Source: Escherichia phage PSD2002. From it: 64,000 nt of DNA. A program made the position numbers and the translations under genes. Where the stretch lies: the sequence record OK335775.1; one strand, written 5' to 3'. Below, piece by piece: positions 2,416 to 62,864 of the stretch; position 1 is the first letter of the stretch, and the number at the start of each line of letters is the position of its first letter. The notes under the pieces were generated by a model that saw only the letters and a program-made list of their open reading frames with translations, had not been told where the DNA came from and did no database searches.

Positions 2416-4311
2416 ATGTCCGAACAATTGAATGAGGTATTTGATGGTGATATAAATTTATCTGCTGTCAATTTAAACCCTAAACTTAAAGTCCCACAGA
2501 TTTGGAATATAAAGGCTGAAGGTAACGAGAACCTTGTTGCCCGCATGGTTTCATATACTTCCGAAGGCGATGTAATTCGTCAGGTTAAGCCTGGTGACAA
2601 GTATGTTCATGTCGTTTTAATGAGCCTATCGGCTAAAGGTTCTCCTGCCGAACTCAAAGGTGGATTAGGTACCAATCCTATTTCCGCTATTCGTTCTATA
2701 TTTGATATCGTCTATGAACAGGTCAAGGCCCTTCGTATGGACGCTGTTATGTTCCGTTTTCCTACCAAGAAAATGAAAGGGCAGGAAAAAGCTATACAGA
2801 GGGTATTGGCTAAATTAATAGCCTCTAGAGCAGGCGGACAGTTTAAAGTTCTTGATGCCTTGTATCAATTCACCGGTAAGCATTCGTATGTTTTTATCTA
2901 TCGTAAAAATAAAAATATAGAATCTATAAATGGTATTCCTAATATTAATTTAGAATTGTATACTAAAGTCGAATCTGAAGTCGGTGACGTGTATGTTTCA
3001 AAGAAAACAGGCGAAGATGTTACCAAACTAGAAGCTATAGCTAAGTCCATAGACGAAATAGAAAAATCACGTTCTGATAAAACTGTTATAACCAAAACAA
3101 AGGTTTCTAAACGTGCTGCTATCAATGCTTTATATCCTACAGCAGAGCCTACAGGATTGAGTAAATTTTCGGCAGAGCACAAAAAAGCTTATGCAGATTA
3201 TTCTGCTACTAGTTCCGTTCATTCTTCTGAAGATTCTAAAGAAAGCCAAATAGCTTTAGCCAGTAATAAAATATTAAAAGACACCTCTAAAGAAATGGCA
3301 GAATATTTGGATTATATTTTTAACGGTGTTAATCCATCATTTGAAGTAGACGAGCGCAAACTTAAACTAATTGCTGATATAAAGTTTGCTTTAGAGGCAT
3401 CAGATTCTTTAGATAAATCTAATAGTGTCATAGAGGCTTTAAAATCAGGTAAATCTCATGTAGACATTCTTAGACTAGTCGCTGCGGCCCTTTTAGATGA
3501 TTCAGTTAAAGGTACTTGGGCTAGAGAATCTAAAATCAAGGAAGTAATAAAATCCTTAGTAGCAGTTTATACAAAATCTATCCAACCGTTGTTTAAGATA
3601 TCTGATAATCCTAATTTATCCAAACCTCAAGAAGAGGCAGTCAAAAAGTATACTCGTGGCGGCTACAACCATATAAACAACTTTTTGCTAGGTAAAACAG
3701 ATACCACCGATGAAATGATAAAAATGATTGGTGAGTTGGATTCTACATTTGAAAATGGTACAAAACTTCCTAAAGGAACCATAGTGTATCGTTCTCAGAT
3801 AATGCCTACCGAAATGGCTTTGAATTCTATAAAACATAAGGTGATGTATCTTCCTATTTTTGCATCAACTTCATTGGCTCCTAATATTTTCGGTGAAATG
3901 GGTCATGCTCAATCCAACTTAGACCCTGAAGCTCTTTCTAGCGATATAGATAGTAATCTTGAAGACACCATTAAAAGTGCGACCGGAAGTGCTAGAGATA
4001 CCATTAAGCTAGGGTTAATTATTAAAGGTGCTGATAAAATTAAGGTTATTGTGCCCGGTGACTTGGCTAATTGGTCTACAGAAACCGAAGTAATTCTTCC
4101 TCGTGGGGTTATGCTTAAGATTAATAAAGTATACGGTGCTTCCAAGGGACCTATGGGTTCAATTGGTAAATATGTTTTAGTGGAATGTGAAGTTGTAGCT
4201 ACCGAGCAAATCACAGAGGAAGATTCATATAGCACCGGATTCTCGTTTGGAAATTATGATAGAATTATGTATGAAGATTCTATGGAAAAATTAGCAAATT
4301 TATTTAAATAG
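2416..4311 (+). CDS. alt: Alt-like ADP-ribosyltransferase, paralog 1 (631 aa)
   Basis: RBS AAAGAGGAA; N-terminal block shared with the next two ORFs; C-terminal ART signatures VYRSQ, FASTSL, ETEVILPRG; position next to gene 30 as in T4. Confidence 0.8.
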   Translation: MSEQLNEVFDGDINLSAVNLNPKLKVPQIWNIKAEGNENLVARMVSYTSEGDVIRQVKPGDKYVHVVLMSLSAKGSPAELKGGLGTNPISAIRSIFDIVYEQVKALRMDAVMFRFPTKKMKGQEKAIQRVLAKLIASRAGGQFKVLDALYQFTGKHSYVFIYRKNKNIESINGIPNINLELYTKVESEVGDVYVSKKTGEDVTKLEAIAKSIDEIEKSRSDKTVITKTKVSKRAAINALYPTAEPTGLSKFSAEHKKAYADYSATSSVHSSEDSKESQIALASNKILKDTSKEMAEYLDYIFNGVNPSFEVDERKLKLIADIKFALEASDSLDKSNSVIEALKSGKSHVDILRLVAAALLDDSVKGTWARESKIKEVIKSLVAVYTKSIQPLFKISDNPNLSKPQEEAVKKYTRGGYNHINNFLLGKTDTTDEMIKMIGELDSTFENGTKLPKGTIVYRSQIMPTEMALNSIKHKVMYLPIFASTSLAPNIFGEMGHAQSNLDPEALSSDIDSNLEDTIKSATGSARDTIKLGLIIKGADKIKVIVPGDLANWSTETEVILPRGVMLKINKVYGASKGPMGSIGKYVLVECEVVATEQITEEDSYSTGFSFGNYDRIMYEDSMEKLANLFK

Positions 4312-58780: not shown

Positions 58781-59473
<693 letters not shown>

Positions 59474-59480
59474 GAACAAA

Positions 59481-59810
59481 ATGAAAACATATAACGAATT
59501 TGTACAAACTGAAGCAATTAATGAAGTAGCCATCCCTAAACCGGCTAAAGCTGACGGTACTGAGTACTACCATATTGAAACATCTTTTGATGCAGCTTCA
59601 GATATGGCTAACGGGCTTGGTGATTTCATCCGTCAAGCTAAGTCCGACCTGGCTAAATTTACAAAGACCCTTGATAAAGAGCAAAAGAAACCTTTCTCGG
59701 ATCTGGCTAAAAAACTGGACGCGTTAAATGACAAGGTCTTTAAAGAAGTTTACCACGGTATGATTGGTCTTACCCGTGAATTCAATGCTGAAGTTAAAAA
59801 ACTTCCCTAA
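59481..59810 (+). CDS. internal-protein-like gene 1 with capsid-targeting N-terminus (MKTYNEFVQTE...)
   Basis: N-terminus matches the T4 internal-protein capsid-targeting consensus MKTYQEFIAE; gp21-type (L/I)-x-E sites; position adjacent to 57B as T4 ipI. Confidence 0.7.
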   Translation: MKTYNEFVQTEAINEVAIPKPAKADGTEYYHIETSFDAASDMANGLGDFIRQAKSDLAKFTKTLDKEQKKPFSDLAKKLDALNDKVFKEVYHGMIGLTREFNAEVKKLP

Positions 59811-59820
59811 GTACAGATAA

Positions 59821-59841
59821 GGAGCCACAAAGCTCCTTTTT
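59821..59841 (+). terminator. stem-loop GGAGC-CACAAA-GCTCC + T5
   Basis: 5-bp GC-rich stem followed by TTTTT. Confidence 0.5.
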
Positions 59842-59858
59842 GTATCTAAACAAAAGGT

Positions 59859-59889
59859 GTTTACTTTCCTGGATAGCCGTGATACTATA
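59859..59889 (+). promoter_or_regulatory. early promoter cassette (GTTTAC ... TGATACTATAGCCCTATCAAAACAA)
   Basis: 32-nt core identical to the copy at 60443-60472. Confidence 0.55.
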
Positions 59890-59925
59890 GCCCTATCAAA
59901 ACAAACTAACCAAACGGAAATCAAA

Positions 59926-60150
59926 ATGAAAACTTATCAAGAATTTATTACCGAAGCTAAAAGACATGAAGATGAACTGCCAATTGTTACAAAAACCTTT
60001 GATGGCACACTGGCTGATTTTAAAAAAGTCCCTAGTGATAAGCTTGCTAAATTGACTGGCTCTATCAATGAAAAAGGTGGCAAGGTCACATTTTCTGCTC
60101 AAGGCACTGCCAATCTTAAAAAACTTTTGAAAGCCGCAGGCGTAGAATAA
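59926..60150 (+). CDS. internal-protein-like gene 2 (MKTYQEFITEAK...)
   Basis: Track ORF 59857..60150 begins at GTG inside the promoter; ATG at 59926 gives the MKTYQEF capsid-targeting N-terminus. Confidence 0.65.
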   Translation: MKTYQEFITEAKRHEDELPIVTKTFDGTLADFKKVPSDKLAKLTGSINEKGGKVTFSAQGTANLKKLLKAAGVE

Positions 60151-60151
60151 A

Positions 60152-60424
60152 ATGAAATCATACCAAGAATTTATCGCTGAATCTATTCTTAATGAAGAAG
60201 TAAAAATTAACAAATCTGTTAAGACCATGATTGATAATATAAATCATCTCTATAACATCGATTTGACTAATCACGTAACTTTAGGCAATAAGCGAAACTT
60301 TTTTGTATTTGATACTTCAGAACTTGACCAGAATCAAATTAACAATATTGAACGTTTTGCTAATGAAAAAGGGCTGCGCCACGAGACAGCCGGTTATAAA
60401 AAGTATGCAATTTATTTAAAATAA
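60152..60424 (+). CDS. internal-protein-like gene 3 (MKSYQEFIAESILNEE...)
   Basis: Capsid-targeting-like N-terminus with I-A-E and L-N-E gp21-type sites. Confidence 0.65.
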   Translation: MKSYQEFIAESILNEEVKINKSVKTMIDNINHLYNIDLTNHVTLGNKRNFFVFDTSELDQNQINNIERFANEKGLRHETAGYKKYAIYLK

Positions 60425-60426
60425 TT

Positions 60427-60457
60427 GTTTACAACGGGCTTTAGCCGTGATACTATA
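60427..60457 (+). promoter_or_regulatory. early promoter cassette (GTTTACA ... TGATACTATAGCCCTATCAAAACAA)
   Basis: Duplicate of the cassette at 59859-59903. Confidence 0.55.
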
Positions 60458-60492
60458 GCCCTATCAAAACAAATGAGTGAATGGAGAATAAA

Positions 60493-60678
60493 ATGAAACG
60501 TTGTGAATTAATTAGAAATGTTACTGCACTGGCCGCTGTTACTGCTTTTGGCTTTAGTATGTTTGCAGGATTCATGCTCGATATGCTTTCAACTTCCGAG
60601 AATATAATCTCTTTAGTAGTGGCATTTTTAATTGGTTCAATTTCTTTTGTTATGGATAAAATCTCTAAAGGTGAGTAA
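60493..60678 (+). CDS. small predicted membrane protein (two hydrophobic helices)
   Basis: Track ORF 60481..60678; ATG at 60493 follows GGAG; hydrophobic segments LAAVTAFGFSMFAGFML and [16 protein letters not shown]. Confidence 0.5.
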   Translation: MKRCELIRNVTALAAVTAFGFSMFAGFMLDMLSTSENIISLVVAFLIGSISFVMDKISKGE

Positions 60679-60679
60679 A

Positions 60680-61060
60680 ATGTATAAAGTGTATGCAGAT
60701 TATCAGGCAAATCCATCTGAAAAACCAGATTGTCAAATTGGGTGGGCACACGACACCCTGCTTAAGGCGGTAGATAAAGCCCAGGAATTAGGGTATAGTT
60801 ATGTGGATATTGTTCAACCCAATGGGACCGTTATTACACTTGAAGAATTCAAGAATATCAAAACAAACTTTTTGCTCTTTGCGGGTGATAACTATTACCC
60901 TCGTGGCGGTTATGCCGACTTAATCGCAAAGGCCGCTACTGAAGATGAACTGCGCGATATCATTAAAGAAAATGAGAATAACCCTCTTTACGGTTCTAAT
61001 CGTTTTGACTGGTGGCAGATTGTTAATGCCAATACCCATACTATTGTAGACGAGGGTTAA
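60680..61060 (+). CDS. hypothetical protein (126 aa)
   Basis: Track ORF 60632..61060 begins at TTG overlapping the previous gene; ATG at 60680 with AAAGGTGAG RBS. Confidence 0.5.
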   Translation: MYKVYADYQANPSEKPDCQIGWAHDTLLKAVDKAQELGYSYVDIVQPNGTVITLEEFKNIKTNFLLFAGDNYYPRGGYADLIAKAATEDELRDIIKENENNPLYGSNRFDWWQIVNANTHTIVDEG

Positions 61061-61351
61061 ATGTTATACGTTAAGGTTACTAATCCAGAGAATGGATATA
61101 ATTCAGACCAGGTTGCAGCAGAGCTACTGATTCGCAACTTTGGCAAAGGTGCTGTGCTTGATGTCCAACAGGTTAATATTGGTCGTAGTTCAAGCGACGT
61201 TAAACTAAAAGTTAACGGTCGCCGTTATAATTCTGTTAACTTTACTTTCTACACCGCAACTGAAAACGGGTTGGTCGAATACGACATCTTTAAAAATCCT
61301 TTGAAGATTGCTTCTATTAAACTTGATTACATTAATATGTGGCCACAATGA
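61061..61351 (+). CDS. hypothetical protein (96 aa)
   Basis: Track ORF, ATG start immediately after previous stop. Confidence 0.5.
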   Translation: MLYVKVTNPENGYNSDQVAAELLIRNFGKGAVLDVQQVNIGRSSSDVKLKVNGRRYNSVNFTFYTATENGLVEYDIFKNPLKIASIKLDYINMWPQ

Positions 61352-61525
61352 ACCAAATTTGACCAGACTATTCCTAAAAATAGTAATATGCTTTAAGAGT
61401 AATGTGTTATTATTACTCTATCATTAATACCCTCTATTACCAAAGGTTCTTCCCTCAAAGAACCTTTCATAATAGACAAGGTCTATTAATCAAACTTACT
61501 TTACTTAATTTTATTTGAGGTGTTT

Positions 61526-61792
61526 ATGTTAGTATTAAAATTAGCTTTTTATGACCCGGCAACCAAGACAACAACAACCAAACGTTGTTCTATTTCATAT
61601 GAATGTCAATTTGGTGAAGTTGAGACCGACGGCGGGCCCTTTATGGCAATTGCCGATAGCACATTCGCTAAACCAAAAATAATTCCACTAGTTAACGCTG
61701 CGGCTTATCTGGTTGCTCCTGAAGAAATGACTTATCACACAATTCAGCACATGGCTAAAGATGATAATGCTCCTGCTGGATTTGTAGTTTAA
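61526..61792 (+). CDS. hypothetical protein (88 aa)
   Basis: Track ORF 61520..61792 begins at GTG; ATG at 61526 follows GAGG. Confidence 0.5.
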   Translation: MLVLKLAFYDPATKTTTTKRCSISYECQFGEVETDGGPFMAIADSTFAKPKIIPLVNAAAYLVAPEEMTYHTIQHMAKDDNAPAGFVV

Positions 61793-61797
61793 ATTAA

Positions 61798-61874
61798 GGC
61801 CCTGTAGCTCAATGGTTAGCAGCAGTCCCCTCATAAGGGAAAGGTTACCAGTTCAAATCTGGTCCGGGTCACCA
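61798..61874 (+). tRNA. tRNA with CAU anticodon (Ile2 or Met), non-canonical D-stem
   Basis: Hand fold: acceptor GGCCCTG/CCGGGTC (one mismatch, one G-U), anticodon loop CTCATAA, T-arm ACCAG-TTCAAAT-CTGGT, encoded CCA. Confidence 0.6.
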
Positions 61875-61879
61875 ACTAT

Positions 61880-61954
61880 GTCCCGCTGGTGTAATGGATA
61901 GCATACGATCCTTCTAAGTTTGCGGTCCTGGTTCGATCCCAGGGCGGGATACCA
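61880..61954 (+). tRNA. tRNA-Arg (anticodon UCU)
   Basis: Hand fold: acceptor GTCCCGC/GCGGGAT, D-loop AATGGATA, anticodon loop CTTCTAA, T-arm CCTGG-TTCGATC-CCAGG, encoded CCA; T4 also encodes a tRNA-Arg(UCU). Confidence 0.75.
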
Positions 61955-62335
61955 AATGAAGACTATTATATAGTCAAGCCGTCGTATGAAGACTGATTAC
62001 CAGCATTCACCGGCGCAACAAACAAGAAACCGGGTCGCTACCGGTAAGTCGTCGGACTGATGTTCCCTGAGTAAGGACTGGCATTAACAAATCTTTACGA
62101 TCTGTTAACGTTCCCTTACATCACAGCAGAAACGGCGCACCGAATTATCGATTCGAGGAAATATCTTTGCCGTAAGCCGAGTAGCGTTTTTGACGGAACG
62201 TTCGGATATGGTCGAGATATGGCCTTTTAAAAATATTGAGTGGCGTCAACTACTTAATAACCGGGTTCGAATCCCGGCGTTTCGTACAAACACTTGCCTA
62301 GCAGGTGGAACCCCGACAAGGTTACCCTAGGTTAA
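61955..62335 (+). ncRNA. candidate stable small RNA(s) with tRNA-like T-arm (position of T4 rnaC/rnaD); boundaries uncertain
   Basis: About 380 nt with no ORF over 24 codons, immediately after tRNA-Arg and ending at a terminator; contains CCGGG-TTCGAAT-CCCGG at 62261-62277 and a possible 7-bp acceptor pairing 62194-62200 with 62278-62284. Confidence 0.3.
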
Positions 62336-62336
62336 A

Positions 62337-62364
62337 GGCCCTTCCGAAAGGTTGGGCTTTTTTT
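62337..62364 (+). terminator. terminator GGCCCTTCCGAAAGGTTGGGC + T7 (variant of the repeated element)
   Basis: GC stem plus T-run; copy of the motif at 16963 and 62980. Confidence 0.55.
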
Positions 62365-62365
62365 G

Positions 62366-62399: not shown

Positions 62400-62864
62400 A
62401 TGAAAACTTACAATGAATTTTTGACTGAACAATCTAGTTCAGATGTAAAAGCCGCTGCTATTGCAGCAATTCAAGCAGGTAAATATTCTTACAAAGACGC
62501 CTCTGATGAAGAACGTTTCCGTTTTATTAAAGATTTTAAAGCCGAAGGTTTTACTAATGCTAATACTGTTAGCCGAGTTTTTAAAAGCCTAGCTGCATCA
62601 GGTGAATTGTTCCAGAAAGCTACAGGTAAAGCACCTGCGTCAAAAGCGGACCCTAAAGCCGCTCAAGAAAAAAATATCGCCAAAGGAATTATTTCTAAGT
62701 ATGAAGCAATTCTTAAAGAGCTTTTAGTAATCAAAACAGAAGGCCAGAAACTGGCACGAGCACATAGCTTCAAAGATAATCCACATGCTCACGACTTAGA
62801 GTATGTTGAAGATATTCAGAAAATCATCAAAGACCGTATCTGGTCTGCTAAACAAATCAAATAA
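62400..62864 (+). CDS. internal-protein-like gene 4 (MKTYNEFLTEQ...)
   Basis: Capsid-targeting-like N-terminus with L-T-E gp21-type site; late promoter. Confidence 0.65.
   Translation: MKTYNEFLTEQSSSDVKAAAIAAIQAGKYSYKDASDEERFRFIKDFKAEGFTNANTVSRVFKSLAASGELFQKATGKAPASKADPKAAQEKNIAKGIISKYEAILKELLVIKTEGQKLARAHSFKDNPHAHDLEYVEDIQKIIKDRIWSAKQIK

Follow-up and report, generated by a model that had tools for sequence, protein, structure and literature searches.

The DNA analyzed in this study (hereafter the window) is a stretch of 64,000 nucleotides from Escherichia phage PSD2002 (sequence record OK335775.1). Region 60400-61960 of the window was best matched by Dhakavirus, i.e. T4-type coliphages (vB_EcoM-E33, 98.4%; JS98, ~93%), and the stretch is JS98-like (Dhakavirus) T4-type coliphage DNA. 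The genes of the locus are arranged in the order gp3, gp1, 57A, 57B, internal proteins and tRNAs, identically to T4 and JS98. Acb1 (57B; Pfam E = 1e-58) is encoded at 59018-59473, and three internal-virion-protein genes (at 59481, 59926 and 60152; block 59481-60424) lie between it and the region studied here. Downstream of this block, the plus strand encodes four small ORFs: ORF1 (60493-60678, 61 aa), ORF2 (60680-61060, 126 aa), ORF3 (61061-61351, 96 aa) and ORF4 (61526-61792, 88 aa). They are followed on the same strand by genes for tRNA-Met (CAT; 61798-61874) and tRNA-Arg (TCT; 61880-61954). The coordinates given in a preliminary description of this region, made from the sequence alone, were thus confirmed, as were the tight packing and the partial start-stop coupling that it had reported. 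A single nucleotide separates the stop codon of ORF1 from the ATG of ORF2, the ATG of ORF3 directly follows the stop codon of ORF2 (0 nt), and 174 nt lie between ORF3 and ORF4.

All four ORFs (4/4) are preceded by a Shine-Dalgarno-like sequence. The dN/dS ratio, calculated by the pairwise Nei-Gojobori method against homologues from 40-odd loci, was 0.03-0.3 for all four ORFs wherever dS was unsaturated; the ranges by gene were 0.06-0.4 for ORF1, 0.03-0.3 for ORF2, 0.04-0.3 for ORF3 and 0.07-0.24 for ORF4. Given these ratios well below 1 and a ribosome-binding site on each gene, ORF1 to ORF4 are genuine protein-coding genes under purifying selection. Paralogues elsewhere in the window were seen for none of them (0/4).

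The counterparts of ORF1 to ORF4 in JS98 are annotated as trna.4, trna.3, trna.2 and orf137. Alignments identified the first three ORFs as orthologues of T4 trna.4, trna.3 and trna.2. ORF1 is 67% identical to T4 Trna.4 (UniProt P13322) across 61/61 aa, ORF2 is 53% identical to Trna.3 (P13323) and ORF3 is 49% identical to Trna.2 (P13324). The similarities extend over the full length of the proteins with the gene order conserved, and at the level of these alignments a spurious homology is excluded. Each of the four ORFs also matched a PHROG family, with E values from 1e-33 to 1e-61. The families matched by ORF1 (phrog_1692, E = 3e-33, entire profile covered), ORF2 (phrog_1411, E = 7e-55) and ORF3 (phrog_2023, E = 4e-40) are all of unknown function. 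Precomputed matches on the same genes in relatives assign Trna.4 to Pfam family PF26870 (Phage_T4_Y07D) and Trna.3 to PF26894 (Phage_T4_Y07C), and a close homologue of ORF3 carries PF27001. The earlier statement that the ORFs have no recognizable motif therefore holds for functional motifs, as none was found in any scan, and needs correction for three ORFs that are named genes with Pfam and PHROG families. Scans of the four ORFs with Pfam, NCBIfam and PADLOC returned nothing above noise, and PDB sequence searches with single sequences and family profiles gave no match. Homology to characterized housekeeping proteins, which the preliminary description had set as its refutation, was not found for the ORFs. 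As conserved hypothetical genes of T-even phages they are known already, with annotations in hundreds of deposited T-even-type genomes.

Within the cluster, ORF1 is the gene most broadly retained, with homologues in 979 phage records (homologue counts here and below are phage records matched by tblastn). A second in-frame ATG is present at 60481. Since this codon overlaps the ribosome-binding site of ORF1 and is missing in T4, 60493 is the better start. The hydropathy profile of ORF1 revealed two hydrophobic segments at residues about 9-31 and 37-54 (GRAVY 0.92), in agreement with the two hydrophobic helices noticed earlier. An alignment of 11 distinct Trna.4 sequences showed conserved tails, MKRxELIRN at the N-terminus and VMDKIS at the C-terminus; conservation is located in these tails and not in the short inter-helix loop. 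ORF1 may thus form a helical hairpin in the inner membrane, with both conserved tails placed in the cytoplasm according to the predicted topology.

The preliminary description stated that small membrane proteins at this position often mediate superinfection exclusion or host takeover; superinfection exclusion gained no support from our analysis. Two superinfection-exclusion functions have been described in T4, Imm and Sp. ORF1 yielded no BLASTP alignment with either of them at E ≤ 100, and its sole PHROG match gives no functional hint. The predicted two-helix membrane structure, the small size, the early transcript and the wide retention of ORF1 speak for a superinfection-exclusion or membrane-remodelling protein. 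However, the Trna.4 protein went undetected in the T4 proteome, and the conservation of putatively cytoplasmic tails rather than of the loop speaks against such a role, which we consider very unlikely.

ORF2 encodes an acidic protein (pI 4.5) with homologues in 762 phage records. Its N-terminal domain is variable; its C-terminal domain (~65 aa) is conserved and characterized by the motif FLLFAGDNYYPxGGY…FDWWQIV, which is present in ORF2 and contains invariant and near-invariant alignment columns. The C-terminal domain stands alone in phages of Salmonella, Staphylococcus, Erwinia and Klebsiella according to BFVD, with which sequence searches agree. A structure model of ORF2 built from 25 homologues (pLDDT 86.5) shows strand-helix-strand and then a short helix in its N-terminal unit, and four strands plus one long helix in its C-terminal unit. 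A BFVD search with this model retrieved uncharacterized phage proteins only. The secondary-structure pattern hinted at an internal duplication, for which a comparison of the N- and C-terminal profiles gave no support (hhalign E = 0.52). The sole PADLOC match of the cluster, ORF2 to AbiEi (E = 0.006, 14.5 bits), was at chance level. In GenBank X03016.1 (5,015 bp, Tequatrovirus T4), the trna.3 frame is labelled "ORF3, unidentified reading frame".

The N-terminal domain of PSD2002 Trna.3 belongs to an allele class other than that of T4 and JS98. With Trna.3 of a T4-like viral contig of about 170 kb (L024), ORF2 shares 92% identity, but Trna.4 and Trna.2 of this contig are just 67% and 48% identical to those of PSD2002. 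This mismatch of identities across genes indicates that Trna.3 alleles recombine independently of their neighbours.

ORF3 has homologues in 810 phage records and carries the Trna.2 family motif IGRSST…YNSVNFTFY…EYDIF in the alignment. The family comprises about 19 representative clusters of 84-115 aa. Across bacteria and archaea (genomes of 185,579 species), only two loci turned up, so that the family is essentially restricted to phages. ORF3 has a pI of 8.9, while the family median is 5.9 and T4 Trna.2 has a pI of 5.1; the mostly acidic family weakens the idea of nucleic-acid binding despite the basic character of ORF3. Two other leads for ORF3 were dropped. A single-sequence match to a DegP-like PDZ2 domain (E = 0.017) was lost when the family profile was used, and the Pfam scan of ORF3 returned no PDZ domain. 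Fibronectin type III (FN3) repeats, matched in a search of representatives of 1.84 billion proteins, proved to be a repeat-inflated artefact, since the scores of the FN3 repeat proteins collapsed from 75, 51, 43 and 43 bits with the single sequence to 12, 21, 25 and 9 bits with the Trna.2 profile. The best single FN3 domain reached ≤8 bits against the profile. A structure model of ORF3 from two near-identical sequences was unusable (pLDDT 53).

ORF4 belongs to the JS98 orf137 family (phrog_14864, E = 1e-61) and is 97% identical to JS98 orf137. Its homologues were found in 51 phage records at 80-99% identity, and by this search the family is confined to Dhakavirus/Gaprivervirus-type phages. In each of the loci inspected (PSD2002, L045, L046, L047 and L049), exactly 5 nt separate the stop codon of ORF4 from the 5′ end of tRNA-Met, and orf137 of JS98 likewise ends 5 nt before tRNA-Met. 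RNase P processing at such a junction would therefore cut the message just past ORF4.

Several putative RNA and transcription signals surround these genes, all on the plus strand. A promoter scan detected a T4-type early (sigma-70) promoter at 60427..60456 (GTTTACA, 17-nt spacer, TG-extended TACTAT), and the same element is present upstream of trna.4 in JS98 and T4. The early character ascribed to the genes in the preliminary description is consistent with this conserved promoter and with the early transcription of the T4 orthologues (PMC9697503). Inside the gap between ORF3 and ORF4, a middle-promoter-like element was read from the sequence at 61389..61413 (MotA-box TGCTTTA, 12-nt spacer, TATTAT); judging from the T4 middle-promoter consensus, it may serve as a promoter. 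The ORF4 leader in which this element lies (61385-61525, 140 nt) is near-invariant among PSD2002, JS98, E33 and vB_EcoM_005. It also contains a stable hairpin of 7 + 10 bp (61433..61476) with no U-run behind it, and the predicted RNA fold of 61415-61530 has a free energy of -24.2 kcal/mol (z = -3.8). By its sequence, the 174-nt gap is more than a random spacer.

Downstream of the two tRNA genes, two stable RNAs of T4, rnaD (species 2) and rnaC (species 1), have homologues at approximately 62022..62286 with ~93% identity; an Rfam search over this region returned no family matches. They are followed by a terminator-like hairpin at about 62338..62365, read from the sequence as GCCCTTCC-GAAA-GGTTGGGC and then T7. 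The terminator scan missed this hairpin because its stem has internal mismatches. It likely ends the transcription unit. The proposed unit would start at the early promoter, pass through the coupled ORF1-ORF2-ORF3, the internal middle-type promoter with its hairpin and ORF4, and continue through tRNA-Met, tRNA-Arg and the rnaD/rnaC-like RNAs to the terminator-like hairpin, with ORF1 to ORF3 being translationally coupled. On the basis of this promoter-to-terminator layout, ORF1 to ORF4 make up a protein-coding leader to the tRNA operon of the phage. The arrangement itself is evident from the sequence, and the functions of its elements are those we infer from their resemblance to T4-type signals.

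The position was described earlier as hyperplastic, and comparison with relatives bore this out. Insertions are found just before the ORF4 leader, either of a 158-aa ORF, as in JS98, or of a homing endonuclease. The 158-aa ORF of JS98 (orf138, RB69 ORF151c-like) lies between trna.2 and the conserved leader, and PSD2002 is without it. Trna.2 is missing in three loci (L045, L049 and L050), and both Trna.3 and Trna.2 are missing in another (L046). In Gaprivervirus UPEC01 and two metagenomic contigs, Trna.4 and Trna.3 are retained and the 158-aa ORF occupies the place of Trna.2; Trna.4, the 158-aa ORF and ORF4 are all that is left in another contig. In two Salmonella-type T4-like contigs (L027 and L028), Trna.3 is cut down to its C-terminal domain. 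Trna.2 also occurs without Trna.4 and Trna.3, in Seunavirus, jumbo and other phages.

These patterns bear on the possibility that Trna.4, Trna.3 and Trna.2 are joined in a single membrane-anchored complex, an arrangement that would account for their translational coupling. Indeed, the three genes keep their order and their tight start-stop coupling over the range from T4 to T4-like phages of Klebsiella (43-49% identity). However, natural genomes retaining Trna.4 have lost Trna.2 alone or Trna.3 and Trna.2 jointly, Trna.2 exists by itself in the Seunavirus, jumbo and other phages mentioned above, and the alleles of Trna.3 recombine separately from their neighbours. This gene-by-gene loss and allele recombination favours independent accessory modules over one obligate complex, and we regard such a complex as highly improbable.

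Some experimental data are available for the T4 orthologues. T4 trna.2 and trna.3 are early at both the RNA and protein levels, while trna.4 is early as RNA with its protein undetected in the T4 proteome (PMC9697503). In CRISPRi-ART (dCas13d) experiments, knock-downs of trna.2, trna.3 and trna.4 were each scored "Not Fit", a score for genes whose contribution to growth of T4 on the laboratory host was not measurable (PMC11879866 supplement). When DRT1 was pulled down from cells infected with T4, Trna.2 and Inh were the sole T4 proteins that showed enrichment with wild-type DRT1 versus the RT-knockout (RT-dead) control (PMC13275509). For trna.3 and trna.4, literature searches with gene names and UniProt names brought up no functional study. 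The dispensability of the region in T4 and the undetected Trna.4 protein could suggest that the ORFs are non-functional as proteins and that the region is only an RNA leader of the tRNA precursor. In opposition to this, dN/dS is well below 1 for all four ORFs across a long divergence, Trna.2 and Trna.3 of T4 have been seen among the early proteins, and proteomics of the DRT1 pull-down recovered Trna.2. The signal of selection and the proteomic detection effectively refute the RNA-leader explanation, which we find scarcely credible.

Another possibility is that Trna.2 (ORF3), and perhaps ORF4, acts on the linked phage tRNAs, by contributing to their maturation or stability or by shielding them from host tRNA-targeting nucleases. 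In all T4-type loci, relatives of Trna.2 directly precede the tRNA cluster, and in Eneladusvirus-like jumbo phages they are inside it, between tRNA-Ile and tRNA-Asn. In Seunavirus, the Trna.2 relative adjoins, or is one gene away from, a CCA-adding tRNA nucleotidyltransferase, and in one further locus (L043) the distance from the relative to a PTH2 peptidyl-tRNA hydrolase is 1.7 kb. The constant 5-nt spacing between ORF4 and tRNA-Met points in the same direction. However, phages without Trna.2 (L045, L046 and L049) retain both tRNA-Met and tRNA-Arg, no tRNA gene is found within 4 kb of the Trna.2 relative in five loci (L041, L042, L044, L051 and L052), and in PVP-SE1 there is none in the 50 kb examined. 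The acidic nature of the family is also a poor fit for an RNA binder, and the linkage could reflect mere co-transfer of "tRNA island" DNA. Because of the unlinked loci, the tRNAs persisting without Trna.2 and the acidic family, a role in tRNA function is held as a minority hypothesis and considered unlikely.

The enrichment of T4 Trna.2 with active DRT1 is the one experimental lead for a role in defence. Trna.2 might be a tRNA-island factor that directly engages host defence, as the sensed trigger or an inhibitor either of reverse-transcriptase defence of the DRT1 type or of a system that targets tRNAs. Such a function would explain both the DRT1 enrichment and the repeated placement of the gene by tRNA genes, the CCA-adding enzyme and PTH2 in four unrelated lineages. 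We judge this specific proposal to be quite unlikely. If the defence or tRNA lead for Trna.2 were true, it would provide a function for a family that about 800 sequenced phages carry, and an extra piece for the activation pathway of DRT1.

Our preferred interpretation is that ORF1 to ORF4 are independent, dispensable, early host-interaction or counter-defence proteins that are co-transcribed with the tRNAs, a proposal that we see as evenly poised between right and wrong. The proteins would be made in the first minutes of infection, and each of them alone would bind a host component. ORF2, with its two small alpha/beta domains and acidic character, and ORF3 may be soluble cytoplasmic binders; like Acb1 (57B) and the internal proteins encoded next to the cluster, they would probably modulate host defence systems or be their targets. 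The counter-defence neighbourhood formed by Acb1 and the internal virion proteins was counted in favour of this interpretation. By the present analysis, the cluster has been named and placed as the leader of a tRNA operon, the PDZ and FN3 leads have been cleared, and the experimental facts have been gathered.

Compared with known systems, the PSD2002 cluster most directly parallels its counterpart in T4. Both phages share the gene lengths, the start-stop coupling, the early promoter and the location of trna.4-trna.2 between internal-protein gene(s) and the tRNA cluster. However, T4 encodes eight tRNAs and segB at the locus where PSD2002 encodes two tRNAs, and T4 is without an annotated orf137 counterpart there, whereas PSD2002 has ORF4. 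As with Imm and Sp of T4, ORF1 is small, hydrophobic and early, but there is no detectable similarity between them. The small counter-defence proteins that T4 encodes close by (Acb1/57B and IPI) and small alpha/beta inhibitors of phages, such as Dmd and anti-CRISPRs, are comparable to the proteins of the cluster as a "works like" analogy only, as they have no sequence homology to the ORFs and their structural scores were at noise level.

At least two allele classes of Trna.3, the family of ORF2, were distinguished by comparing the window (60680-61060) with the homologous loci L024, L001 and L002, and they differ chiefly in the N-terminal half. Trna.3 of the window shares 92% identity with that of L024, a T4-like viral contig, whereas the flanking genes share only 67% (Trna.4) and 48% (Trna.2). 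This disparity indicates recombination inside the trna.4-trna.2 cluster.

Gene content also varies at this position among relatives. A 158-aa ORF (JS98 orf138, RB69 ORF151c-like; L001 3951-4427, L045 1904-2380, L046 1136-1612 and L049 1892-2368), which is not present in the window and had no match in a Pfam search, is inserted 5′ of the conserved ORF4 leader in JS98 and substitutes for Trna.2, or for both Trna.3 and Trna.2, in other relatives. Klebsiella-type T4-like phages carry an additional small ORF between Trna.4 and Trna.3 (63 aa at 2437-2625 or 3437-3625 in L009, L015 and L029; 3172-3387 in L033), which weakly resembles the opening residues of the C-terminal domain in Trna.3 (E = 0.01 to 5e-5).

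The non-coding leader of ORF4 (140 nt; 61385-61525) is near-identical across JS98, E33, vB_EcoM_005 and the window. Within it are a MotA-box-like candidate promoter at 61389-61413 and, at 61433-61476, a strong hairpin (z = -3.8) without a downstream U-run. At the other end of the gene, exactly 5 nt separate the ORF4 stop codon from the first base of tRNA-Met in all five loci compared (window 61790-61798, L045, L046, L047 and L049). Because of this proximity, the ORF4 mRNA would keep almost no 3′ UTR after RNase P cleavage.

In the window, tRNA-Arg is followed by homologues of rnaD (species 2) and rnaC (species 1) at 62022-62286, with about 93% identity to the T4 stable RNAs. They include a tRNA-like 3′ part, GGTTCGAATCCCGG, and no Rfam family matched this interval. 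Located 3′ of the tRNA/rnaC block, and apart from the three internal-protein genes at 59481-60424, is a 154-aa ORF (62400-62864) of PHROG 2280, a family without assigned function. The protein starts with MKTYNEFLTE, the signature by which internal proteins of T4 are targeted to the capsid.

By its Pfam match (E = 1e-58), the 57B orthologue (59018-59473) is clearly the anti-CBASS phosphodiesterase Acb1. The name 'RNA ligase' persists for it in PHROGs and in a number of GenBank entries.

Trna.2 neighbourhoods were drawn from L013 (2995-4548), L032 and L034 (3995-5808), L012, L014 and L040 (about 3000-4300), and L043 (1899-4249). The Trna.2-family gene is a close neighbour of a CCA-adding tRNA nucleotidyltransferase gene in Seunavirus and sits between tRNA-Ile and tRNA-Asn in jumbo phages. 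In L043 it follows the gene for a PTH2 peptidyl-tRNA hydrolase at a distance of 1.7 kb.
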